Below the pieces are notes generated by a model, which saw only the letters and a list, made by a program, of their open reading frames with translations, had not been told where the DNA came from and searched no databases. 57,899 bases of DNA from an uncultured Candidatus Peribacteria bacterium (GTDB lineage Bacteria; Patescibacteriota; Gracilibacteria; Peribacterales; Peribacteraceae), in NCBI GenBank assembly GCA_964645935.1, contig CAZYAK010000003.1, positions 1 to 57,899 of the forward strand. Direction: 5' to 3'. Each line of letters starts with the position of its first letter. Positions within the stretch are counted from its first letter, which is position 1. The translations under genes were made by a program, and so were the position numbers. Shown here in pieces: positions 1-38,487 of the stretch.

Positions 1-30
1 GCCTTGGTATCCGCATGGCCGGCTCCACCA

Positions 31-392
31 AGGGTTTCCCGTTTCTTTGTCGCCACAAAGAAACGGGGGAAAGAAAACGCCGACCGCGACAAGCCACCGG
101 CCTCCAGCGGATAGGGGTCCCTCTAGCGGGTGCAATGCTCAAGGAACAGGATCCCTGCGGCCGTAACCGCCTACCCGCCGTGTCCGGTCGAGGGGTAAGG
201 CGAAGACCCTGCTCGGAAGGGGTCAGTGGCTCCAGAAGAATGCCGTATCGATTGCACCCGCGCGCTACCCCTACAACCCAGCCGCAGGTCTTCGACCTGC
301 GGGTGACGATCAAAGCGGCCGCGACCAAACACACACATATCCCCAGTCGCACTGGTCCCGCGGTGCGGACTGGCGATCATGGCGTCCGCCCG
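31..392. repeat. ORF-less structured repeat element, copy A (hairpin 38-67; blocks shared with 27905-28145; inverted TTGATCG-hairpin module at 260-313)
   Basis: Block-wise nucleotide similarity to 27905-28145 and 36594-36703. Perfect 13-bp stem CCCGTTTCTTTGT/ACAAAGAAACGGG. No ORF with coding-like composition. Confidence 0.6.
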
Positions 393-3329: not shown

Positions 3330-4904
3330 TCATGGTTGGACGACGTAGCGGACCGTCTTCACCGACGGGAATTGCTTGAGGTTGGCGGAGATCGCGCGCT
3401 GCGCGGAGGTGGAGCTCTCGGTGTCACCCTGGAAGATCTCGGCCAGCGGGCGGGCCAGCCGCACCGTGGCCGTGCCGCCCTGGATGACGACGCCGCGGTA
3501 ATCGTCTCCCGAGAAGCCCCACACGCCGTTGCAGGGCTGGGCCTTCTCGTCGGCGGAGATGGAGGCGTGGAGCATCGCGCGGAGCGTCATGTCCGCCACG
3601 GAGGAGGACTGGGGCACGGTGCGCGTGAGCTTCACGGTGGGCGCCGGGACGTCATGCACGCCCGAGCCGTAGGGGCAGAGCAGGATGCTCACCTCCATGG
3701 TGGGAGCCTCCTGCGCGGCGGGCGCGGGCGCGATGTCCACGGTGTCCAGGAACGCGCGGAAGAGCTGGTCCTGCCCGTCGGAGGAGAGGTATCCGTCCTG
3801 TTGTTGATTGCAGTCCACCGACCGTACGATCACGAGCGTGCGCGTCGCGTCCATGGGGACGAAGGTCGTCTCCCAGCCCTCGCACTCGAGGCCCTCGAAG
3901 TACGAGACGCCTTGGCGCCCGTCCACGGTGACATTCTGGGCGAAGTCCTCGTCGAAGGAGTTGAAGCCGAGCCGCGCGTACACGAGCGGCCGGTCCAGGA
4001 CGCCCACGGAGATCGCCAGCTTGCTCACGGAGGGGCGGCACGGGGCGTCTGGGCCCGCCATACCGTTGCAGCCCTCTGCGGTCTCGTGGCGGCGCACGTG
4101 CGCGACATCCAGGGAGTGCATGCGCTGCAGGTCGCCGGGTACGTAGATGTCACGCACCGTCAGCACGCCTTCCTTGGCGCTGAAGAGCGATCCGGGGTAG
4201 CTGAAGGAGACGTCACGCAGCACGGACGACACCTCGTCGCTGCGCACGTCGTCACCGTCCTCGATGCCGGAGAACCATTCCAGCGACGTGCGGCCGGTAT
4301 CCAAGCGATAGCGCAGCTCCGCCATCTCGCCGCGCGTGAACGGGGCGTCGTAGGCCTCCACGGTGGGCGGCACGGCGTGGCGCGCCAGGAGGGCGGAGGC
4401 GTAGGGCGCGTACCAGCGGTGGTCGTACGCGTCCGCGGGGAGGATGGGCAGCTTGTAGGCGGTGGCGGCGATCTTGGCGGCCTCGGCGTAGTTGATCCAC
4501 GCGTGCGGCGCGAAGCCGCCGTCGGGGTATCCCGAGACGATGCCACGCTCCTTGGCCACGCACACGTACGGCGCGAACCACTCGGTCCTGGGGACGTCGG
4601 GGAAGATGATCTGGGATTTAGCCACGCAGGCCGAGCGCTCCTCGGGGGTGGAAGCGTCCACCACCAGGAGCTTGGTCAGCTCCGCGCGGGTGATGAGGCC
4701 GTCCGGACGGAACGTGCCGTCGGGGTAGCCCTCCACGCTCCCCTTCCCGCGCAGGAACTCGATGGCGGGCGCGGCGGACACGCATCCGCGGACGTCGGAG
4801 AAACCCGTGGCCGCGGCGTTGCAGCCGGTGGTGGCCAGCGCGACGGGAACGGCCAAGAGGGACGTCGACGCGACGGCGGCGGACAGTAGGAGGGAGAGGC
4901 GCAT
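3330..4904 (-). CDS. secreted SLH-domain protein with C-terminal GerMN-like domain
   Basis: Signal peptide MRLSLLLSAAVASTSLLAVPVALA. Two SLH-type repeats (GYPDGTFRPDGLITRAEL, SGYPDGGFAPHAWINYAEAAK). The C-terminal ...GGTATVRLARPL...ANLKQFPSVKTVRYVV looks GerMN-like. Confidence 0.7.
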   Translation of the reverse strand: MRLSLLLSAAVASTSLLAVPVALATTGCNAAATGFSDVRGCVSAAPAIEFLRGKGSVEGYPDGTFRPDGLITRAELTKLLVVDASTPEERSACVAKSQIIFPDVPRTEWFAPYVCVAKERGIVSGYPDGGFAPHAWINYAEAAKIAATAYKLPILPADAYDHRWYAPYASALLARHAVPPTVEAYDAPFTRGEMAELRYRLDTGRTSLEWFSGIEDGDDVRSDEVSSVLRDVSFSYPGSLFSAKEGVLTVRDIYVPGDLQRMHSLDVAHVRRHETAEGCNGMAGPDAPCRPSVSKLAISVGVLDRPLVYARLGFNSFDEDFAQNVTVDGRQGVSYFEGLECEGWETTFVPMDATRTLVIVRSVDCNQQQDGYLSSDGQDQLFRAFLDTVDIAPAPAAQEAPTMEVSILLCPYGSGVHDVPAPTVKLTRTVPQSSSVADMTLRAMLHASISADEKAQPCNGVWGFSGDDYRGVVIQGGTATVRLARPLAEIFQGDTESSTSAQRAISANLKQFPSVKTVRYVVQP

Positions 4905-4992: not shown

Positions 4993-5853
4993 TCACACGG
5001 CGATGGGCGCCTTGATGGAGGGCAGCGGGTCGTACCCGACCACCTCGATATCCTCGAAGCGGAACGCGAGGAGGTCCTTCACATCCGGATTGAGCTTGAG
5101 GGTGGGCAGCGGACGCGGCTCGCGCGTCAGCTGCTCCTTGGCCTGGTCCAGGTGGTTGAGGTACAGGTGCGCGTCGCCCATGGTGTGCACGAAGTCGCCG
5201 ACCGCGAGGCCGCACACCTGCGCGATCATGTGCGTGAGCAGCGCGTAGGACGCGATGTTGAAGGGCACGCCCAGGAAGATGTCCGCGGAGCGCTGGTACA
5301 GCTGGCAGCTCAGCTCGGGCTTTCCTGCCCGAGCCCCATCAGACACGTAGAACTGGAAGAGCGTGTGGCACGGAGGCAGCGCCACTTCGTCGGCTTCCGC
5401 GGGGTTCCAGCCCGTCACGATGTGGCGACGGCTGTCGGGGTTCTTCTTGATCCCGTCTACGAGCTTGAGGATCTGGTCGACGCCGTCTTTCTTGAAGGTG
5501 CTGTCCGCGTTGCGCGTCGCGCCGAAGTTGCGCCACTGGTGGCCGTACACGGGCCCTAAGTCCCCCGCCTCGCGGCCGAAGCGCGCGGTCTGCTCCGCAG
5601 TGGCCCACTCGTCCCAGATGGTGACGCCCTGGGCCTGCAGCGTCTTTACATTCGTGTCGCCGGAGAGGAACCAGAGCAGTTCCTTGAAGATGGACCGCGT
5701 CGCGAGCTTTTTGGTGGTGAGCAGCGGGAAGCCTTGGCGCAGGTCGTAGCGCGCCTGGTACCCAAAGACGGACCGCGTCCCCGTGCCCGTGCGGTCGGAC
5801 TTCTCGGTGCCGTGCTCTAGGACATGGCGGAGGAGATCGAGGTACTGCTTCAT
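4993..5853 (-). CDS. thyA: thymidylate synthase (ThyA type)
   Basis: [38 protein letters not shown] is the canonical ThyA N-terminus. Full length, 286 aa. Confidence 0.97.
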
Positions 5854-5973
5854 GGCCCGCGCACACTACCACAAGAATGCGGCGCCGGAACGGCGGCGGG
5901 AATCGCGGCAACAAGACGGCTCCCCCGGTCAGAGACCGGGGGAGGAGCCGCTCAGGGGAGGACGGGGGGGCGG

Positions 5974-7862: not shown

Positions 7863-9047
7863 TCAGCGCCCCGCGCACTCCTCGGGCCACGGGGGGAGAT
7901 CCTTCATCGCGCCGTATGCGGGGGTGTAGTCATTGCGGGCGTTCCAGACCGTGTACCCGCAGAGACCCGCATCCTGCACGGCGGCCATCTGGTCCCGCAG
8001 GTCCCGGGCCGAGACGTAGTACCCCTGGATCCACGGCCGAAGCTTCCGCCAGTGCTCCTCGCCGAGCAGCTGCTTGTAGCCGTCGAGCGTGCGCCACACC
8101 AGATAGTACGAGCGGCTTCCCGGGTTCTTGCCCGGCACGTAGTACGCACCCGCGGCGAAGGTCGACGGGTAGGCCATGGGGGAGATGACATCGACGTACG
8201 GGGCGAAGCGCACGAAATCCTGCCCGATCGCCTCCAGGTTGATGGGGTAGTTCCACCCCAGGATGGCGTACGTGCTGATGCCAAAGACCGTGCCGGGGCT
8301 CACCTCGTCGATGGTCTCGCGCACCATGCGGATGAAGGGCTCGATGCGGTCCGCCTTCTCCTTGCCGCTCAGTCCGATGGACGCCTGCGCGTATTCCGTG
8401 GGGTAGCGGATGTAATCGAGGTTCACCTCGTCGATCCCCGTCAGGAGGAGGTCTCTCAACACTTGCTGGTTGTACTCCAGCGTCACGGGCATGGAGCCGT
8501 CCACCCAGACGGTTCCGATGCTGCGGCCCGTGGAGGGATGGCGAATGTGCGCGTCGGGGCGGCGCGCGGAGAAGAGCGGATCCTTGAGCGAGATGAACCG
8601 GCCGATCACGTAGATGCCGCGCGCATGGGCCTTGGAGACGACGTCCGCGAGATCGAGGACCGGACGGACGAGGCCCAGCTCGTGAGCGATGGCCGCGGTC
8701 GTGGGGAAGTACACGTTGGACCCCTTCACGTCGACCACGAACGCGTTGCCTCCCAACGCTTCCAGGCGATCAAAGGTGGCATCGAGGAACTCGGGGTTGG
8801 CCGCGGTCGTCGCTCCCAGGTAGACGCCGCGGGCCCGGAGCGCGCTCGCGGACGGACGTCCGCCGAGCATGCCGAAGAAGTACCCGGAACCCGTGTTGGT
8901 GCGACCGCGGTTCGCCTCGCGGCGTTCCAGCCGCCGCTGCATCCGATCCTGGGCGCTTGCCATGGCCACCAGCGTGGGCCGAGGAGCGGTCGCGAGCGGT
9001 TCACGAACAAGCTCCAAAAGTACGGCGACGGCGAGAAGACTGCTCAC
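7863..9047 (-). CDS. putative glycoside-hydrolase-like TIM-barrel protein (GHL/DUF4015-type)
   Basis: GGNAFVVDVKG..., ARGIYVIGRFISLKDP, GIDEVNLDYIRYP match motifs recalled from hypothetical glycosyl-hydrolase-like families. GTG start. Confidence 0.5.
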   Translation of the reverse strand: MSSLLAVAVLLELVREPLATAPRPTLVAMASAQDRMQRRLERREANRGRTNTGSGYFFGMLGGRPSASALRARGVYLGATTAANPEFLDATFDRLEALGGNAFVVDVKGSNVYFPTTAAIAHELGLVRPVLDLADVVSKAHARGIYVIGRFISLKDPLFSARRPDAHIRHPSTGRSIGTVWVDGSMPVTLEYNQQVLRDLLLTGIDEVNLDYIRYPTEYAQASIGLSGKEKADRIEPFIRMVRETIDEVSPGTVFGISTYAILGWNYPINLEAIGQDFVRFAPYVDVISPMAYPSTFAAGAYYVPGKNPGSRSYYLVWRTLDGYKQLLGEEHWRKLRPWIQGYYVSARDLRDQMAAVQDAGLCGYTVWNARNDYTPAYGAMKDLPPWPEECAGR

Positions 9048-17079: not shown

Positions 17080-17457
17080 TCAGCCGAGGAGCTCCTTCAG
17101 GCGCGTGATCGCGTTGCGCAGGATCCGGTCCATCTGCCCCACCGTCTCGCCGCGGCCGCGGGTTTCGGCCGTCTCGCGGAGCGTCCGGCCTTGGCGGCGC
17201 GCTTCCAGCAGCTCGCGCTGGTCCGGGTCCAGCTGCGCGATGGCTTCCTCCAGGCGTTGGCGCTCCTCGGCGTCCAGCGCGTCCTCCGGCGGGACGAAGC
17301 GCCCCGAGAGCGCCTGGGCGACGGCCGCGCCGCCGCGCCGGAGCAACGCGTCGAAGGCCGCCTGCTTCTCGGCGCCGGCGCCCGTGCCACGCAGCACCGT
17401 GACGGCATCGGTCACGGGCGGCCCGGCGGAGGGAGGGGTCTCGGCGGTCACGGTCAC
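17080..17457 (-). CDS. truncated sigma-like protein (region 2.1-like start plus region 4 only, 125 aa)
   Basis: LDPDQRELLEARRQGRTLRETAETRGRGETVGQMDRILRNAITRLKELL resembles sigma-70 region 4. Regions 2.2-2.4 are absent. The GTG start overlaps the upstream sigma stop (GTGA). Confidence 0.6.
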   Translation of the reverse strand: MTVTAETPPSAGPPVTDAVTVLRGTGAGAEKQAAFDALLRRGGAAVAQALSGRFVPPEDALDAEERQRLEEAIAQLDPDQRELLEARRQGRTLRETAETRGRGETVGQMDRILRNAITRLKELLG

Positions 17458-18083
17458 GGCAGGAACGCGTCGAGGTCGATCTCCCGTTCCCGGCTGAGCT
17501 TGCTGATGACGGACTTCAAGCGGCGGCGCGCGTCGTGCAGGCGCCGCTTCACCGTGCCGAGGGGCACGTTCACCGCGGGGTCCGTCTCGTTTGCCGGCGT
17601 GCCGAGTGCACGCTGCATCTGCTTCAGGCTCATCCCGCTGAAGTAGAACAGGTCGATGACCTGGGCATCGATGGGCCGCAGGAGCGCGATGACGCGATCC
17701 AGGACATTCTGCACCTCATCCTGCACCAGCTCCGCCTCCGGGGAGGCTTCCGGCGAGGGCACGGTGTCGAGGTCGCAGGCCTCCGTGCGCATGCACAGGG
17801 ACTTGCTGCCCGCCTTCGTCAGCTCGTTGAGCGCCATGTTCCGGGCGATCCTGCAGATCCAGCTACGAAATGCGCCTTCTTCCCGCAGCTGGCCAAACTT
17901 GCGCAGCGCCTGCATCGCCACCAGCGACGCCAGGTCCTCGGCGTCATGCCGGTCGCGCAGCAGGGCGAGGAGGAGGTTGAACACCTGTCTCCGGGAGCCC
18001 TCGTAGAGCTCCAGGAACCGCGCGGCGTCTGGCGCCGCGGGGGTCTCGAGCCGCGGCTCGTCGAGGCAGTCGGGAGTGTGCAT
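17454..18083 (-). CDS. ECF-type sigma-70 family factor, paralogue 1
   Basis: Region 2 (FLELYEG...DAEDLASLVAMQALRKF...FRSWICRIARNMALN) and region 4 (...GTVKRRLHDARRRL). Start at MHTPDC, preceded by CCCTCCCCATCCGCCC. Confidence 0.85.
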   Translation of the reverse strand: MHTPDCLDEPRLETPAAPDAARFLELYEGSRRQVFNLLLALLRDRHDAEDLASLVAMQALRKFGQLREEGAFRSWICRIARNMALNELTKAGSKSLCMRTEACDLDTVPSPEASPEAELVQDEVQNVLDRVIALLRPIDAQVIDLFYFSGMSLKQMQRALGTPANETDPAVNVPLGTVKRRLHDARRRLKSVISKLSREREIDLDAFLP

Positions 18084-18154
18084 GGGCGGATGGGGAGGGT
18101 CTCGGGGAACGTGTCCCCTTCTTGCTGCTGCGAACGGGATCACGGCCGGCAGGG

Positions 18155-18778
18155 TCACGACAGGAGCGCGTCCACATCGATCTCGTTCCGCTTGCCCATC
18201 TCAACGAGGACGGCCTTCAGGCGGCGATGGGCGCTGTGCAACCGTCTCTTCACCGTGCCCATCGGCACCTCGATTGCAGGGCCGGACTCGGTCGCCGGCG
18301 TGCCGAGCTCGCGCGCCATCTCCTTGTAACTCAGGCCGCGGCGATAGCGCAGATCGATGATCTCGCCATCGAGAGGCCGCAGGAGCACGATGACGCGCTG
18401 CAGGATCTCCCCGAGCTCCGCGAGCTCCAGCTGCTTATCCGGGCCATATCCCGGTGAGCACACATCATTCAGGGTGCGGTCCTCGCGGCTCCGGCGGAGG
18501 GCGTTGCGCCGCGTCAGCGCGTTGATGGCCATGTTCTTGGCGATCTTGCAGATCCAGGCGCTGAACGCCCCTTCGTCCCGCAGCTGGCCGAACTTGCGCA
18601 GTGCCTGCATCACCACGACCGACACCAGCTCCTCGGCATCGTGCCGATCGCGCAGAAGCGAGAGGAGGACGGCGAACACCTGGGCCCTGCAGCCCTCATA
18701 GAGCTCCATGAACCGCGCCGCGTCGGGTGCGACGGCTTCCCCGGTTTCCAGAGAGGCTGGGCAATCGGAATGCTCCAT
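18155..18778 (-). CDS. ECF-type sigma-70 family factor, paralogue 2
   Basis: Collinear with paralogue 1 (FMELYEG..., FSAWICKIAKNMAIN, GTVKRRLHSAHRRL). Start at MEHSDC. The longer ORF to 19153 would overlap gatB. Confidence 0.85.
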   Translation of the reverse strand: MEHSDCPASLETGEAVAPDAARFMELYEGCRAQVFAVLLSLLRDRHDAEELVSVVVMQALRKFGQLRDEGAFSAWICKIAKNMAINALTRRNALRRSREDRTLNDVCSPGYGPDKQLELAELGEILQRVIVLLRPLDGEIIDLRYRRGLSYKEMARELGTPATESGPAIEVPMGTVKRRLHSAHRRLKAVLVEMGKRNEIDVDALLS

Positions 18779-18935
18779 GGGCGGATGGTAAGGATCTCGA
18801 ACGACTTGTCCACTTCTTGCTCCGCATCGGACGATTTGGGGCTGGAAACAGGGAAACGATGCCCTTGCCGGTGGCCGTCCGCCATCCGCCGACCGCCCAT
18901 TGCGACGGAGACGCCGCGTCGTTACGCTGGTCCCC

Positions 18936-25558: not shown

Positions 25559-26128
25559 TTACGCTCTATCGCGCATTTCGGGGGGTAAAATGGCTTCCAG
25601 CTTCTTGAGGGCGCGGAACTTGAGGATACGAACGGCACCTTCCGTAAGCCGGAGCGTCCGGGCCACCTCGTCCGTGGGCAGCTCTGCCACGTAGGTGAGT
25701 AGCAGTACTTCGCGGTAGCGCCGGGGCAGTTTGTCCACAGCCGCACGAACCACGCGCAACGTGTCTTCCGAGCGCGTGCGGGCATCGGCGCGGTTCCAGG
25801 CATCGGTGTCCTCCAGCTCCTCGGTGACCTCCTCGGTGTCACGCTCCTTGCGGTACGAATCGACCACCGCATGGCGTGCGATGCGAAAGATCCACGCGCC
25901 AAACGGCACGCCCGCCTGGGGCCTATACTGGTGCAGCTTCTCCCAAACCTTCACGAAGACATCGGCCACGATGTCCTCCGCCAGGTCCTGCGGGACACGG
26001 AACGCCGTGTACCGGTAGACGGCCAAGAAGAACTGGTTGTAGAGGCGCTCGAAGGCGCCGCTGTCGCCGTCCCGGGCGAGCGCCACGAGGCGCTGCAGCT
26101 CCGGTTCTGGAAGGGGCTCCGGGGCCAT
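25559..26128 (-). CDS. ECF sigma factor
   Basis: Region 2 (DLAEDIVADVFVKVWEKL..., FGAWIFRIARHAVVD) and canonical region 4 (EVARTLRLTEGAVRILKFRALKKL). Confidence 0.9.
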   Translation of the reverse strand: MAPEPLPEPELQRLVALARDGDSGAFERLYNQFFLAVYRYTAFRVPQDLAEDIVADVFVKVWEKLHQYRPQAGVPFGAWIFRIARHAVVDSYRKERDTEEVTEELEDTDAWNRADARTRSEDTLRVVRAAVDKLPRRYREVLLLTYVAELPTDEVARTLRLTEGAVRILKFRALKKLEAILPPEMRDRA

Positions 26129-26223: not shown

Positions 26224-26832
26224 TCAGGCGAGCGGCAGCGCGACGCGACGCGCTGTCTCCGGCTCCAGGATCCCGTCCAGGAAGCGCAGCAGTCGATCAC
26301 GGATGGTCTGGACGGATCCGCCGAGGGATTTCTGCAGGAGGACGAGCGACTTCTTGAGCGCGGCATGGCCGGGAGCGCGCTCATTCGGGCCTTGCAGGTG
26401 TAGCACACCGTAGCCCTTCTGGGCATGCTCGATATCCAGGAATTGCGAATCGGCAGACAGCTTGTCGATCTCGAAGCGATGCGCGAGGAGCTCTTCCGTG
26501 GACAGGCCGAAGAGATGAGCGACCTCGGCGAGCTGAGCGATCCGCTTGCTCACGGCGACATCGCTCTGACCTTCGTAGAAGTGCCCGCAGGCCATATTAG
26601 TGGAAGCCCAAGGGCAATCGGCGGCCATCGTCCCCTCGTCCTCATGGAGCACGCCGCAGCAGACGATCTTCAGCTCCCGCGCCTTGTCCAGGATGACGCG
26701 CGGGACCGCGCCCTTGAGCATCTGCCGCTGGTACTCATCCAGCCACGCGAAGCCCTCCGGATGGCGGGCGGAAGGCAGGGCCTGATCGAGTTGGTCGGCG
26801 GAAAGCACCGGCGGATGGTAAAGATGTTTCAT
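26224..26832 (-). CDS. hypothetical protein (202 aa)
   Basis: ORF trimmed to MKHLYHPP. High GC3. Confidence 0.55.
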   Translation of the reverse strand: MKHLYHPPVLSADQLDQALPSARHPEGFAWLDEYQRQMLKGAVPRVILDKARELKIVCCGVLHEDEGTMAADCPWASTNMACGHFYEGQSDVAVSKRIAQLAEVAHLFGLSTEELLAHRFEIDKLSADSQFLDIEHAQKGYGVLHLQGPNERAPGHAALKKSLVLLQKSLGGSVQTIRDRLLRFLDGILEPETARRVALPLA

Positions 26833-26990
26833 CCGGATGCAACATGGGACGGGGGAAATTCCCTCTTCTCCGCCGAGCGAAGCCACGAAAATACCCAAAA
26901 GTTGACGGAAAACGGCCCGATGTCTAGGGTTTCCGGCCCGGTCCGCTTCGGACCGGTCGCCTGCTCCTTTCCATCGGAGGATCTCGGACC

Positions 26991-27362
26991 ATGCTGCCTC
27001 GCCGTCTCTACTGCGCGACGTACACCTGCCGCTGCACCATCGAATCGTATGCCATCGAAGGCGACGTCGACCCCGACCGCGTCCCCGCCCTCGTCCCGTC
27101 CAGCCCGCACCGGGTGGGCTACCGGCTCCACCACCGCGTGGGCGACGTGGATACTGGCGGGGCCGAGGACTACGGCTGTCTGCACCTGCACAACGCCGTG
27201 CCGGTGGCGATCACGGAGGTACTGCGCCTCCTTCGCACCATGCCGAGCATCGACGTGGGCGACGGCATCACCGACGTGGCGTACGTGGTGACCTGCCGCG
27301 ACTGCGGCAAAAAAGCCCTCGTCCAGGTCACATCGTCCGTCGGCGTCACACTCATCAAGTAA
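26991..27362 (+). CDS. hypothetical Cys-containing protein (123 aa)
   Basis: ORF with YCATYTCRC and TCRDCGKK motifs (possible Zn site). Confidence 0.5.
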   Translation: MLPRRLYCATYTCRCTIESYAIEGDVDPDRVPALVPSSPHRVGYRLHHRVGDVDTGGAEDYGCLHLHNAVPVAITEVLRLLRTMPSIDVGDGITDVAYVVTCRDCGKKALVQVTSSVGVTLIK

Positions 27363-27434
27363 TCCGCCGTCTGGCGCAGGCGTGGGGCATCTCCGGGAGG
27401 TGCCCCATTCGTCATGCTCGCCCCTCGTACGGGT

Positions 27435-27576
27435 GCCGGATTGATCGCCACCCGCGGGGCGGGACCCCCGCGGCTGGGTTAATAGGCGGGTCGGGCCTGG
27501 AAGAGATCATGCTTCTTCAGCCGTACAGCGTCATCAACCGAGTCGAACTTTTCCCGTCTCTACGCTGACACTTTTT
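27435..27576 (+). repeat. TTGATCGCCACCC-hairpin repeat module, copy D
   Basis: The first 45 nt are identical to 36751-36795 (GCCGGATTGATCGCCACCCGCGGGGCGGGACCCCCGCGGCTGGGT). The 3' part is homologous to 36817-36873. Confidence 0.75.
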
Positions 27577-27730
27577 GCACCGGGGTGGGTCAGGAAGGTA
27601 AGGGAGGTCCAGGAGGGGGTAGGGAACCGGACAAGGTTCCCTCCTCTTCCTGGGACCAACCCCTGCCGGAACTATCGGATGAAGGACGACCGAAGCGATG
27701 CGCTTCTGGATCGTACGAAAAAAATGACTG

Positions 27731-27816
27731 CCTCACTCCCACTCAATCGTGCCCGGCGGCTTGTTGGTAAGGTCCAGAAAGACGAGATCGACGCCATCGA
27801 GCGCCAAGACACGCTC
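27731..27816 (-). pseudogene. orphan duplicate of the guaA 3' end (last 27 codons, stop and 2 nt); left copy of an 86-bp direct repeat
   Basis: 86/86 identity with 28392-28477. Encodes ERVLALDGVDLVFLDLTNKPPGTIEWE* but has no upstream guaA sequence. Confidence 0.9.
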
Positions 27817-28391
27817 TGTTATCAAGCCGAGGACGTCGCGTCGTGGGCTTGGGACGCGATCCCCTGGGACAAAGAACTGGAGAACGAAAGCCTCGATCTG
27901 CGAAGAGCTTCCCATTTCTTTGTACGCGACAAAGAAATGGGAGAAAGAAAACGCCGACCTGCCAAGCCGCCGGCCTCCAGCGGATAGGGCTCCGCCGCTC
28001 ACTCGTTGAATCACACGTACCCTCACGCTCCGGCCGCAACCACTGACCTACTGTGGCAGGTCGAGGGGTACGGCTCAGGCCCTGCTCGGAAGGGATCAGT
28101 GGTTTCAGACGAGTGTTGCCAAGGAACCACACAAACAATCACACCCATCTCTGGAGCCCGGCCCCCTCCATGAAGATCGCGCATGCTGTCTGAGGAGGGC
28201 CTGCGGGCCCGACGAGTTCTTGCGCGGGCGCCTTTCTTTCCGCCGTTTCTTTGGCGCGTACAAAGAAACGGCGAACCCTGGCGGAGAAGACTCCCGCTCG
28301 AGAACATGTAGCCCCAGGATCGCACACAAAAAGTACCACCCTCGGTGGTGCGGATGGCACGAGGAGAACAGACGGTTCCATTGATCGCCAC
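27817..28391. mobile_element. 575-bp ORF-less hairpin-rich insert between the guaA-tail repeats (integrated-element remnant or non-autonomous element candidate)
   Basis: Flanked by the 86-bp direct repeats. Inverted copies of the GTTTCTTTG..CAAAGAAAC hairpin at 27911-27941 and 28242-28272. Blocks homologous to 31-270. Ends in TTGATCGCCACC. Confidence 0.45.
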
Positions 28392-28393
28392 CC

Positions 28394-30196
28394 TCACTCC
28401 CACTCAATCGTGCCCGGCGGCTTGTTGGTAAGGTCCAGAAAGACGAGATCGACGCCATCGAGCGCCAAGACACGCTCCGTCATGCTCTGGAGCACGGAAG
28501 GCGGGAGGACGAAGGCGTGGGCCGTCATCGCGTCGGTAGAGACGATAGGGCGCAGCACCACAGACTGGCCACCGGCGCGTGTGCCGAATGGCAGCAGCAC
28601 TACGGGGAACTGCCAGATCTCCCCATCCAAAGCGGCGCGCACCATCTCTTCGTGCACAGCGGCGTCGGCCTCGCGCAGGAGGTCAGCACGCTGACGCGTG
28701 ATGGCCCCGGGGGTGAAGGTGAAGGCGACAGGCGGAGCGGTACGTGAGGTGCAGAGCAGCACGCGATTGAGCGTGGGGTGGGAATTCGGGACCGACGTGG
28801 CTAGATGCAGGTGCTCTTCGGTGACGACGGTTGGCCGGTCCGAGAAGAGCGCCACCGCGTGGCGGTACGTGCGGCCGTCACCCTGCACGCCCACGGACTT
28901 CACGGGGAGGATGGCGTGCGTGCCTAGGCGTGCGGTGTCGCTGCGCCCGGGAAGGTCGGGGCCATTGGCGCAGAGAATGCGCACCCCAAGTCCCGGTCCC
29001 GGGAACGGATGGCGCCACACGAGAGCTTTCGGCAGACCCAGCTCCTCGCCAAGCAGGCGCACTTCGTCTTTGTAGAGCTCCTTGAGCGGCTCGATCACGA
29101 GGCCGGCGTCGATCATCTTCTGCACCGCATCTACACGATTGTGGTGCGTCTTAATATGGTCTGCATGCTTGGTACCGCCAGTCTCGATGGTGTCGGGGTA
29201 GATGGTCCCCTGGCCCAGCATCCAGCCATCCTCCACGCGAAGGTTCAGCCGCTCACTCACGCGCTTCTGCACAGCCAGGAACGTGTCGCCGATGATCTTC
29301 CGCTTAGCCTCGGGCTCGGTCACGCCCTCCAGGTTCTTGAAGAATTCGGCCGAAGCGTCCTCCACTTTGAGGTTGGTGATGCCAAGCTTCTCAAAGGCCT
29401 CCGTAATGAGCGCAACTTCGTTTTTCCGCATCAGGCCCGTGTCGACGAGCAGGCCCTGCACGCGGTCCGCGCCAAGCACCTTGTTGAGGAGCGTGAACGC
29501 GACGGAGGAATCCACGCCGCCGGAGACGAGCATGAAGACCTTGCGATCGCCGACCTCTTTGTTGAGCGCCGCACCCACATGGTCCTCGAAGCTGGTCATG
29601 GACCAGGGCGCAGGCTCGCAGAGCATCACGAAGTTCTTGAGGAGATCCATCCCGTGCTCCGTGTGTGTCACCTCCAGGTGGAACTGCGCGCCGTAGAGAC
29701 GACGCTTCTCGTCCGCCATCGCGGCGTAGTCGCCCACCGCGGTCTTGGCGGACTGCGAGAAGCCCTGGGGCAGGACGCTCACCTCGTCGCCGTGGGACAT
29801 CCACACCGTGAAGGTTTTGGGCAGACCCTTGAAGAGCGCGCCGTGGCTGGTGACGGTAAGGGGCGTCTTGCCGTACTCCTTCACCTTCCCCGGGGTGACC
29901 TTGCCGCCGAGGACCTGGGCCAGCCACTGATGGCCGTAGCAGAGGCCGAGCACGGGGATGCCGAGCTCCAGGATCGTGGGGTCCGCCTGGGGGCTCCCCT
30001 TCTCATACACGCTCTGCGGTCCTCCGGAGAGGATGATCCCCGCGGCGCCTGTGAGCTCCTCAGCCGGCGTCTCCGCCACGCGGATCTCCGAATACGCCCC
30101 CAGACGCCGGACGCGGTTGGCGATGAGGTGGGCGTACTGCCCGCCGAAATCCAGGATGACAATGGAGCCGGGGTGGATGGGAGGCGGGCCCTTCAT
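28394..30196 (-). CDS. guaA: GMP synthase (glutamine-hydrolysing)
   Basis: GATase (ILDFGGQYAHLIANRVR, LGLCYGHQ), the ATP-PPase P-loop SGGVDSS and the canonical C-terminus KPPGTIEWE. Start at MKGPPPIHPG. Confidence 0.95.
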   Translation of the reverse strand: MKGPPPIHPGSIVILDFGGQYAHLIANRVRRLGAYSEIRVAETPAEELTGAAGIILSGGPQSVYEKGSPQADPTILELGIPVLGLCYGHQWLAQVLGGKVTPGKVKEYGKTPLTVTSHGALFKGLPKTFTVWMSHGDEVSVLPQGFSQSAKTAVGDYAAMADEKRRLYGAQFHLEVTHTEHGMDLLKNFVMLCEPAPWSMTSFEDHVGAALNKEVGDRKVFMLVSGGVDSSVAFTLLNKVLGADRVQGLLVDTGLMRKNEVALITEAFEKLGITNLKVEDASAEFFKNLEGVTEPEAKRKIIGDTFLAVQKRVSERLNLRVEDGWMLGQGTIYPDTIETGGTKHADHIKTHHNRVDAVQKMIDAGLVIEPLKELYKDEVRLLGEELGLPKALVWRHPFPGPGLGVRILCANGPDLPGRSDTARLGTHAILPVKSVGVQGDGRTYRHAVALFSDRPTVVTEEHLHLATSVPNSHPTLNRVLLCTSRTAPPVAFTFTPGAITRQRADLLREADAAVHEEMVRAALDGEIWQFPVVLLPFGTRAGGQSVVLRPIVSTDAMTAHAFVLPPSVLQSMTERVLALDGVDLVFLDLTNKPPGTIEWE

Positions 30197-36552: not shown

Positions 36553-36593
36553 GAGGGAATCGTAGCATGGGACGAGGCTTGGCAGCCGCAACC

Positions 36594-36873
36594 AGACACA
36601 CACAAACGCCCAGCCACACTGGTCCCACGGTGCGAACTGGCAAGGGAAACGGCTGCGCTGATCGCCGCCCGCAGGTCGAAGACCTGCGGCTGGGGTATAG
36701 GGAGGGCTGACCCGGGAGGGAACGATCGGAATGTGTGTTGTCCGGTCGATGCCGGATTGATCGCCACCCGCGGGGCGGGACCCCCGCGGCTGGGTATAGG
36801 GGGTAGCGCGCTTTTCCAGCCGTGCAGCGAGAAAACCGAATCGAACTATCCCCGTCTCTCCGCTGACACGTTT
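36594..36873 (+). repeat. mosaic of repeat modules, copy C (ACACACA/CACTGGTCCC module, then two TGATCGCC-hairpin modules)
   Basis: 36594-36642 is homologous to 325-377. 36658-36703 is homologous to the reverse complement of 260-313. 36751-36873 is homologous to 27435-27576. Confidence 0.75.
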
Positions 36874-36898: not shown

Positions 36899-37687
36899 AT
36901 GACCCCCCGCCTCGCCCTCCTCGCCCTCATACTTGCCCTGCCCCTCGCGGCCTGCGACGCGCTCCTAAACGAGGACGCGATGAACGACCTGGTTCCCTCG
37001 GTTTCGGAAATCGCAGTCTCCTCGGCCACCGCTTCGTCGGAGGCTCCGTTGCCGCCGGAGGATCCCACGGCGCCCTTGGAATCAGGCGACGTGTCGGTGA
37101 CGGCGTCAGGGTCAGCGGCGGTCGCGGCCATGCCCCCGGAGGATCCCGGCTTCGCAGACGACGAGCGCGTACTCGACAGCGGAGTGCTGCAACTGGGCGA
37201 CGTGAACGCGCCAGTACTCGTGACCGTGTACATCAACCACGCGTCGCCCTACAGCCGCGCCTTCACCGACGACTACCTGCCCAAGCTCCTGGCCGGATTC
37301 GTGCGCCGGGGCGAACTCAAACTCACCATTGTGTCGATACCGTTCCAGAAGTACCCCAACTCTCGCGCCGAGGCCGCCGGCCTCCTCTGTGCCGCGCGGC
37401 AGGGCAAGGGCCTCGCCATGCACCGCGCGCTTGCAGCACTTTCCGTGCGCACGGATGCGAGTATGCGCACGGCCGCGACGGACCTGGCGGTGGACCCCGC
37501 CGCCTTTGACGCGTGTCTCCGGGACCCCGCCACCTCAACCGCCATAGACGAGCAGGCAAGTCTAGCAGCCAGTAACGGCGCAACGCTCGTGCCGTCCTTT
37601 GATTTCGACGCCGAGACCGAGATGGTGCAGGGGCTGATGGACTACCCGGACCTGCGCGGACGGATCGAGCGGACGCTCCGGCACTGA
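36899..37687 (+). CDS. DsbA-like thioredoxin-fold lipoprotein with SPYS in place of CxxC
   Basis: Lipobox LALPLAAC. VLVTVYINHASPYSRAF aligns with the DsbA-family F/D-x-C-P-x-C-x-x-F site. Confidence 0.6.
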   Translation: MTPRLALLALILALPLAACDALLNEDAMNDLVPSVSEIAVSSATASSEAPLPPEDPTAPLESGDVSVTASGSAAVAAMPPEDPGFADDERVLDSGVLQLGDVNAPVLVTVYINHASPYSRAFTDDYLPKLLAGFVRRGELKLTIVSIPFQKYPNSRAEAAGLLCAARQGKGLAMHRALAALSVRTDASMRTAATDLAVDPAAFDACLRDPATSTAIDEQASLAASNGATLVPSFDFDAETEMVQGLMDYPDLRGRIERTLRH

Positions 37688-37812: not shown

Positions 37813-38487
37813 ATGAAGACCCATTTTGCCTTGTCCGCCGCCGTCGCTACGGTGTGCACCCTCGCGGTGAGCGCCACGGCGTTCGCGCAGCAGCAACCGT
37901 TCCGCAGGGATCCGTTCACGGACGTACCCTCCAGCAGCGCGCAGTCCGAGGCCATCGAGTACCTCCGCAAGGGCAACGTGCTCAAAGGCTACCCCGACGG
38001 CACCTTCCGCCCCGGGAAACAGATCACGCGCTCGGAGTTCATCTCGCTCCTTACCAACCCGTTCTTCCTGAGCGGCCGCGAGAACGACTGCCTCAAGGTG
38101 CACTTCTCCACCACGAGCAGCTCGGCCCGCGTGTTCTTCACCGATGTGCCCAAGGATTCGTGGTACGGCCAGGACGTGTGCGAGGGCATCGTGCACGGGA
38201 TCATCAACGGCTACCCCGACGGCACCTTCAAGCCCCAGCACTGGGTGAACTTCGTCGAGGCCGCCAAGATCACGGCCAACGTGCTGGCCATCGACGTCAC
38301 CACGGACCCTGCCGACGAGCGCTGGTTCGTCCCCTACGTGAAGTACGTGGCCAAGGTGAAGGCCATCCCCACGTCCATCAAGCGCTTCGACCAGGAGATC
38401 ACCCGCGGCGAGATGGCAGAGATGGTCTACCGCCTCAAGGTGGGCAACTCCACCAAGGCGAGCGCCTCCTTCGAGAGTCTCCGCTGA
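37813..38487 (+). CDS. secreted SLH-domain protein (3 SLH repeats)
   Basis: Signal peptide, then FTDVP...GYPDGTFRPGKQITRSEF, FTDVPKDSWYG...GYPDGTFKPQHWVNFVEAAK, and ...ITRGEMAEMVYRL. Confidence 0.85.
   Translation: MKTHFALSAAVATVCTLAVSATAFAQQQPFRRDPFTDVPSSSAQSEAIEYLRKGNVLKGYPDGTFRPGKQITRSEFISLLTNPFFLSGRENDCLKVHFSTTSSSARVFFTDVPKDSWYGQDVCEGIVHGIINGYPDGTFKPQHWVNFVEAAKITANVLAIDVTTDPADERWFVPYVKYVAKVKAIPTSIKRFDQEITRGEMAEMVYRLKVGNSTKASASFESLR

Follow-up and report, generated by a model that had tools for sequence, protein, structure and literature searches.

Why should the end of a conserved gene lie twice within a few hundred base pairs, and which of the sequences around its two copies is the newcomer? 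These questions are raised by a 57,899-bp stretch of DNA (the window), which is a complete contig of a metagenome-assembled Candidatus Peribacteria genome. Its guaA gene, which encodes a glutamine-hydrolysing GMP synthase, is accompanied downstream by a second, orphan copy of the gene's own 3′ end (the tail). Peribacteria belong to the candidate phyla radiation (CPR), a group of very small genomes in which few mobile elements have been recognised and routes of gene gain are poorly understood. Comparative analyses of this locus and of its counterparts in related genomes tentatively favour one answer, namely that the duplicated tail is a recombination scar at which two "downstream-of-guaA" segments were joined in tandem at the guaA terminus. 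A scar that recurs at the end of a universally conserved gene, together with lineage-specific ORFans, in several Peribacteria would represent a concrete and testable route of gene gain.

Genes were called by codon-position GC (GC3), and all called genes were then scanned against Pfam. The features that define the duplication are as follows.

28394..30196, minus strand: guaA, glutamine-hydrolysing GMP synthase of 600 aa, intact (from the list of open reading frames, ORFs; P0001 match 100%)
28392..28477, minus strand: T_R, the resident 86-bp repeat, comprising the final 27 codons, the stop codon and GG
27731..27816, minus strand: T_L, the orphan copy of the 86-bp repeat
27817..27834, minus strand: "e", a diverged in-frame extension of the orphan tail, reading VLGLIT where guaA has VLQSMT (BLASTP and tblastn)
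27817..28391, no strand assigned: X, the DNA between the repeats, non-coding and predicted to fold as a long inverted repeat (GC3, Pfam and folding)

The guaA product carries the domains GATase, NAD_synthase and GMP_synt_C, and its protein matches are confined to Candidatus Peribacteria/Peregrinibacteria, the nearest at 79% identity. The original prediction, made from the DNA sequence, had reported a perfect duplication at this locus, and 27731-27816 and 28392-28477 are indeed identical at 86/86 positions, with about 6e-43 chance 86-mers expected in the window. On the minus strand both copies read ERVLALDGVDLVFLDLTNKPPGTIEWE, followed by the stop codon and GG, and both contain the GAGTGGGA octamer. 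The right copy alone runs into guaA (28394-30196), and the left copy, at a spacing of 661 bp, is an orphan tail, as had been proposed. With two mismatches allowed, the repeat stretches to 92 nt (27731-27822 and 28392-28483). The orphan had been described as 27 codons long; this holds for the perfect block, whereas homology to guaA reaches 33 codons (27834-27736).

Over those 33 aa, the orphan and guaA are identical at 30/33 positions by BLASTP and tblastn (VLGLITERV... and VLQSMTERV...). At the position of "e", the pattern among 120 GuaA relatives is VLxx[M/I]T, to which the orphan's VLGLIT conforms, and the three single-nucleotide differences in "e" (ATA/ATG, ACA/ACG and GTC/GTG) all fall at third codon positions. 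Because VLGLIT is legal for the family and the differences lie at third codon positions, the orphan tail is shown to be the remnant of a guaA 3′ end from a functional allele other than the resident one. Mismatches are also unevenly spread, with 7/18 nt in "e" and 0/86 in the adjoining perfect block. This cannot be uniform divergence; the boundary of a recombination or gene-conversion event lies at 27816/27817. Upstream of "e", nucleotide similarity is at chance level only, and although "AFVL" may match again in the orphan frame another 45 nt upstream, this is not significant at the nucleotide level. No degenerate third tail copy was found near the sigma factor gene or between the ORFans of the window.

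Orphan tails in other Peribacteria

The guaA locus was compared in 12 lineages, comprising the window and 11 others. Gene order is conserved (Wzy, guaA, extracytoplasmic function (ECF) sigma factor, DUF5667, EF-P and GatB), whereas the spacer from guaA to the sigma factor gene is hypervariable. It is empty, at 39-270 bp, in L001, L004, L091, L095, L096 and L102; the contig of L092 stops 369 nt beyond guaA, a stretch without a called ORF; and in L003, L006, L093 and L094 the spacer holds unrelated, lineage-specific ORFs. In the window it measures 2.27 kb and contains two genes, ORF123 and ORF224.

25559..26128, minus strand: ECF sigma factor, the conserved neighbour found directly after guaA in relatives
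26224..26898, minus strand: ORF224, a strict ORFan (GC3 0.77)
26991..27362, plus strand: ORF123, a lineage-specific gene (GC3 0.88) without a family

Neither ORF123 nor ORF224 had a match in Pfam, PHROG or NCBIfam, and ORF224 matched itself alone among 5.8 billion proteins. No similarity was seen among the spacer ORFans, including between ORF224 or ORF123 and the spacer ORFs of the relatives.

A search of the spacers for the conserved guaA terminus returned two clear extra copies. In L094, one such copy (PGTIEWE*, 5843-5866) lies in direct orientation 30 nt after the real stop codon. Similarly, in L006 the orphan PATIEWE* (7903-7926) is in direct orientation 75 nt after the stop codon, and AT-rich DNA and an ORFan follow it. 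L093 has a likely decayed orphan copy with a 16-nt insertion at about 5825-5870, as judged by eye. The L094 orphan matches the tails of other lineages at 24/27 positions and its own resident tail at only 19/27, and the corresponding values for the L006 orphan are 21/27 and 17/27. Orphans are present in three to four of the five lineages with spacer ORFans and in none of the seven whose spacer is empty or ORF-free (Fisher value of roughly 0.01-0.05, by the authors' own estimate). In every case, the window included, the orphan sits between guaA and the ORFans, and no matching repeat was found at the sigma-proximal ORFan edge in the window, L006, L094 or L093.

Comparison of the region downstream of guaA found the site hit repeatedly, in L094, L006 and likely L093, and found the seven ORF-free lineages without an orphan. 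These comparisons show short, xenologous orphan tails recurring at the same position in other Peribacteria, where they sit at the guaA-proximal edge of lineage-specific ORFan DNA. Their recurrence in relatives shows the guaA terminus to be a real recombination site in this clade; it looks like a place where new DNA lands repeatedly, not like the home of a single tiny mobile element. It is accordingly unlikely that the duplication is purely an artefact of assembly or a single chance event.

The DNA between the tails

An att-like repeat does not by itself identify the inserted part, and the stretch between two repeats may be native. The modules of X, and the related ones elsewhere in the window, are listed here.

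27881..28115, plus strand: A2, full copy of the dispersed element A (head motif at 27905-27960, plus strand; covariance model R1, 56.1 bits)
28219..28300, minus strand: A3, an element A copy that is inverted and incomplete (head motif 28223-28278, minus strand; R1, 58.4 bits)
23..242, plus strand: A1, a third element A copy, with which the contig starts (head motif 32-86, plus strand)
28124..28190, minus strand: D module, a CA-rich tract and hairpin, terminator-like on the minus strand (by eye only)
28325..28349, minus strand: terminator-like hairpin with a U-run, 45 nt after the guaA stop codon
28380..28393, plus strand: truncated B module (ATTGATCGCCACCC), lacking its hairpin and overlapping T_R by 2 nt
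27434..27575, plus strand: complete B module, located in the distal flank and identical to 36750-36795 over its first 46 nt
27588..27672, no strand assigned: C, a long imperfect hairpin in the distal flank (only spurious miRNA-like Rfam matches, reflecting the hairpin)

The absence of a credible ORF from these 575 bp, as originally stated, is borne out by codon composition and domain content. ORFs within X have a GC3 of 0.50-0.70, compared to 0.77-0.88 for neighbouring genes and 0.84 for guaA, and none has a Pfam match except to the GMP_synt_C tail itself. As a single strand, X is predicted to fold as one long inverted repeat, A3 against A2 (z = -4.2). The two inverted hairpins that had been noted are present as perfect 13-14 bp stems at 27910-27942 and 28241-28273. 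Their recurrence at the start of the window also stood up, since 27903-28115 (A2) is colinear with 30-242 (A1) at 77% over 216 nt, and 28219-28286 (A3) matches the reverse of 23-93 (A1) at 82%. The inverted arms formed by A2 and A3 (39 nt, 87%) lie inside X, with 35-110 nt separating them from the tails. The D module recurs at 321-385 and 36590-36645 (by eye).

At the guaA side of X, the breakpoint falls at the foot of a hairpin, as the original prediction proposed. The motif TTGATCGCCACCC has seven matches in the window at two or fewer mismatches, compared to 2.05 expected, and 0/100 shuffles reach seven. At 27441, 36658 and 36757, and at 301-313 on the minus strand, it is followed by a GC hairpin; at 28381 the guaA tail stands in place of that hairpin. 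The 661-bp unit of X and one tail had no match in phage or plasmid collections, and the contig holds no near-identical source copy of X, the best match being 77-82%.

X is shown to be a mosaic of structured repeats that recur in the same contig (the A, B and D modules), and it is also shown to supply a terminator-like hairpin next to guaA. A further indication of its status comes from L092, in which a diverged head motif of element A (GGCACTTCTTTG-GCGCG-CAAAGAAGTGCC-CAAGAAA-CGC, at 5820-5871; relative 74% identical) lies 11 nt after the guaA stop codon. Because an element with the head motif directly follows guaA there, such elements can be ordinary, native guaA flank. X itself is probably native guaA flank rather than a mobile unit.

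The B modules bear on how two sequences in this genome may become identical. The B core is 100% identical over 46 nt between 27434-27479 and 36750-36795, with flanks at only about 70-78%, and the core of a second B subtype is identical over about 27 nt between 279-305 and 36666-36692, again with flanks at about 70-78%. The identical cores lie 9-36 kb apart. This pattern indicates that the B-module hairpin repeats have undergone recent copying or short-tract gene conversion, and short-tract homogenisation is plausible in this genome because of the perfect 46-nt B block within 78% flanks.

Origin of the duplication

It is a property of single-crossover insertion that two repeats are always left around the inserted DNA. 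In the window and its relatives, the DNA between the tails is short and non-coding (30, 75 and 575 nt) and the genes lie beyond it, a layout that is best fitted by the arrival of a fragment carrying a tail. In the tentatively preferred explanation, a recombination scar, the incoming DNA would stem from a related genome, begin within the guaA tail of that donor, and bring with it T_L, the B and C repeats, ORF123 and ORF224. Its point of attachment would lie downstream of the resident guaA and of X, the repeat-rich native flank, and guaA would have stayed intact throughout. The joining would have needed a homologous anchor in the conserved sigma-side genes and one illegitimate, microhomology-assisted joint at 27817-27838, and would then be a case of homology-facilitated illegitimate recombination. 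Gene conversion could later have made the two tails alike over 86 bp; alternatively, the donor may have been nearly conspecific. The main alternative for the joining step would be an integrase acting in trans at the GAGTGGGA core.

Homology-facilitated illegitimate recombination combines one homologous anchor with one microhomology joint. It adds foreign DNA beside a conserved gene and can leave a partial, diverged end of the donor gene. The layout of the window (guaA, native spacer, foreign tail and ORFans) would match by analogy. In contrast, the Peribacteria breakpoints fall repeatedly within the last 24-104 nt of guaA, and one copy in the window is perfectly homogenised. No experimental system is known for CPR bacteria.

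The original prediction instead took the 575 bp for an integrated element, either a decayed island or a mini-element. In this explanation, the 661-bp unit (X and one tail) was integrated at the guaA 3′ end by site-specific recombination, leaving attL and attR, and would be a small non-autonomous element or an extreme island remnant whose tyrosine integrase is encoded elsewhere or has since been lost. Published work documents integration at the guaA 3′ end, a classical att site (PMC4844618, PMC4701971, PMC5704250), and the literature on GIsul2 and Tn5801-like islands agrees with the prediction that it is an integration hotspot. The GIsul2 integrase recombines at GAGTGGGA within a 19-bp attB at guaA and leaves att repeats of 8-19 bp (PMC9376610), and Tn5801-like islands leave 11-bp repeats (PMC4844618). 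The predicted displaced direct repeat of the guaA terminus is genuine and contains this GIsul2 core in both copies. As with GIsul2, Tn5801-like islands and streptococcal integrative and conjugative elements (ICEs) and integrative and mobilizable elements (IMEs), a direct repeat derived from the gene's 3′ end accompanies an intact guaA, and the same conserved site is used recurrently across lineages, with att-like imperfect repeats in L094 and L006. The diverged "e" also resembles an element-borne mimic of the gene end. However, these guaA-targeting elements differ from the window in several respects. No integrase is present in 58 kb, and neither an integrase nor any other gene lies between the repeats. 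With 86 bp and no mismatch, the repeat far exceeds the known guaA att repeats, and perfect repeats should not be retained by a decayed island. X is built only of resident repeats and lacks phage or plasmid matches. Finally, in L006 and L094 as in the window, the cargo of lineage-specific genes lies outside the repeats, beyond inter-tail DNA of 30-75 nt in the relatives, with no third repeat at the far edge. Integration of the 661-bp unit is therefore considered rather unlikely.

Other known systems resemble the locus in part. Cis-mobilizable elements (CIMEs) are att-flanked, integrase-less remnants of ICEs, and they share with the window direct repeats of a gene 3′ end that flank a segment without recombination genes. 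In contrast to CIMEs of several kb, the segment in the window is 575 bp, has no sequence relation to any mobile element, and has no cognate ICE or integrase on the contig. Phage 21 and e14, which integrate at icd, bring a long replacement copy of the gene 3′ end, and the likeness to the window is a long 3′-end duplication with silent differences and an orphaned displaced copy. However, phage 21 and e14 are prophages with integrases, and their duplicated copies flank a whole prophage. The HUH enzymes of IS200/IS605 or of repetitive extragenic palindromic (REP) sequences and their REP-associated tyrosine transposases (RAYTs) would fit a breakpoint at a hairpin foot but not an 86-bp duplication, and no HUH gene was found on the contig or recurrently near the head motif in 77 loci.

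A one-off replication error within the genome, a templated insertion of the microhomology-mediated break-induced replication (MMBIR) or fork stalling and template switching (FoSTeS) type, would need no recombinase. A fork stalled in guaA would have switched, where the B hairpin has its foot, into a B-A-D-A cluster. After replicating about 575 nt of it, the fork would have returned about 92-104 nt upstream and thereby copied the tail a second time. Identical tails are expected if both were copied from one template, and the insert does consist of resident repeats. The first junction falls exactly where full B copies begin their GC hairpin, with only 2 nt (GG) in common with the tail, and the second shows imperfect microhomology. 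A template switch thus accounts well for the truncated B junction and its 2-nt overlap. It is nevertheless improbable, since the contig lacks a source copy of X (77-82% at best), "e" differs from guaA in ways that respect codon positions and the pattern of the family, unlike random junction microhomology, and the independent, foreign-type orphan tails of the relatives argue for a systematic, transfer-driven process. Those same orphan tails, found in independently assembled genomes, also weigh against an assembly artefact, in which the assembly graph would have looped through the 86-bp node common to both sides and fused two strain haplotypes, or a small circle, into a single path. The metagenome-assembled contig was seen only once and ends within repeat A1 at position 1, which might suggest such an artefact, but the tail-X-tail topology requires reads that join a tail to X on both sides, and an 86-bp repeat is presumably shorter than ordinary reads and the largest k-mers. 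An artefact is thus very improbable. Still harder to credit is a functional repeat, either the template/variable pair of something like a diversity-generating retroelement (DGR) or an orphan kept identical by transcription antisense to guaA from a promoter-like B region. Both mismatches within the 92 nt are A in the orphan and G in the gene, and there is a resemblance between the B module at 27434-27575 and the sequence that precedes a gene at 36899. However, the DGR, with its template repeat and variable repeat, was rejected because the contig lacks a reverse transcriptase and the changes are not A-specific, with only 2/16 adenines differing and the other 14 left as they are. Besides, GuaA is not a target of diversification, and no consensus promoter was found.

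Two further candidates do not fit. A simple tandem duplication was rejected because only 86-92 nt are common to both sides, with chance-level similarity beyond, and the 661-bp unit is not doubled. A transposon or miniature inverted-repeat transposable element (MITE) does not match the locus, since the A2/A3 arms are internal, there is no short target-site duplication, and about 80 other motif loci have no flanking repeats.

Several observations weigh against a recombination scar formed by the arrival of a tail-bearing fragment. To account for 86/86 identity beside 7/18 mismatches, a further step has to be assumed, be it gene conversion or a mosaic donor. Additionally, the distal flank also has resident-type repeats (B and C) and is not obviously foreign, and the sample comprises only 12 lineages, with the L093 orphan judged by eye. 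The joints fall within the last 100 nt or less of the donor guaA in three to four lineages, which hints at a regularity too great for randomness and, in turn, at site-specific activity. Such activity would be the core of a more speculative and improbable scheme, in which the guaA terminus is a dedicated Peribacteria landing pad where tail-tagged ORFan cassettes are stacked downstream in integron-like fashion by a recombinase acting in trans. The A elements of the spacer would then be a new class of mobile structured RNA or DNA element that participates in or exploits the site, and whose pseudoknot head is conserved across phyla and common to TwoAYGGAY repeats.

The head motif and the rest of the contig

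The head motif of element A is 55 nt long and consists of a 13-bp stem (TTTCTTTG/CAAAGAAA), an invariant GAAAGAAA linker and then a complement of the loop; its hairpin form is TTTCTTTG-N6-7-CAAAGAAA-YGGNN-GAAAGAAA. It was found in 77 stretches of representative genomes from many phyla (loci L007-L083). The hosts include Peribacteria, Peregrinibacteria, Chisholm-, Uhr-, Woese- and Gottesmanbacteria, Clostridia (one metagenome-assembled genome, MAG, holds more than 13 copies), Halothiobacillus-like Gammaproteobacteria, Chlorobiaceae, Ignavibacteriales and Thermodesulfobacteriota. The hairpin family is thus not private to this Peribacteria genome. No long direct repeats flank the head at about 80 other loci.

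The outer five base pairs of the 13-bp stem covary strongly, and the loop is complementary to the 4-6 nt after the invariant GAAAGAAA, with a mean helix of 3.87 nt compared to 2.60 +/- 0.10 for permuted partners. Stem covariation and loop complementarity past GAAAGAAA together suggest that the head forms an H-type pseudoknot. In each lineage, the head is followed by that lineage's own "body" of 150-220 nt. ORF clustering over the 77 loci found no protein gene consistently linked to the head, only generic ABC ATPases and histidine kinases, and by crude gene calls no orientation bias relative to genes was seen, the orientation looking random. A 20-mer of element A had only chance matches, in coding sequence, and a 30-mer of the tail had 0 matches in metagenome contigs.

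The head motif is absent from Rfam, and the A copies of the window had no Rfam match at the gathering score or at E values up to 5. It does, however, keep company with a known RNA family. In Halothiobacillus-like and other Pseudomonadota MAGs, every match to TwoAYGGAY (RF01731) has a head immediately 3′ of it on the opposite strand, for instance at L033 7207-7414 and 7549-7757, and also at L010, L012, L013, L027, L030, L035, L038, L044, L046, L069 and L077. The head may therefore be an unmodelled 3′ domain of the TwoAYGGAY RNA (UUUCUUUC and the hairpin, possibly with a U.A-U triplex). The accessible part of the 2010 TwoAYGGAY supplement contains no mention of the head motif. Like REP, BIME and REPIN repeats and TwoAYGGAY, the A elements are multi-copy, structured intergenic elements that occur in either orientation and sometimes as inverted pairs. 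In contrast to REP/RAYT systems, those of the window have no linked RAYT-like or other transposase, and unlike TwoAYGGAY, their bodies match neither RF01731 nor any other Rfam family. A head that is conserved from CPR bacteria to Clostridia and Gammaproteobacteria, lies outside Rfam and extends the unexplained TwoAYGGAY RNA family merits a study of its own.

The contig itself starts within the A element A1, and the assembly probably broke at this repeat (position 1). Next come a B module in inverted orientation (269-321) and a terminator-like D module, which directly adjoins the stop codon of a gene at 393-1217. No integrase, transposase, HUH enzyme or reverse transcriptase had a Pfam match among the GC3-supported ORFs, so that the originally stated lack of any recombinase in sight holds across the whole 57.9-kb contig. 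The contig has no tRNA gene, and no Rfam family was found in the window at the gathering score.

A few minor observations concern other parts of the contig. The ORF at 51183-51644 matches the 23S rRNA-intervening-sequence protein family (PF05635), on a contig without an rRNA gene. At 17817-18126 and 18512-18821 lies an older tandem duplication (period 695 bp, 76-81% identity). It takes in the 5′ portion of a gene for an ECF sigma factor (17454-18158), and its second copy appears degenerate, with in-frame stop codons. Additionally, 4460-4749 and 37987-38281 show inverted similarity of 71-78% between two S-layer-homology (SLH) domain genes 33 kb apart, which reflects paralogous SLH repeats and is a separate matter.

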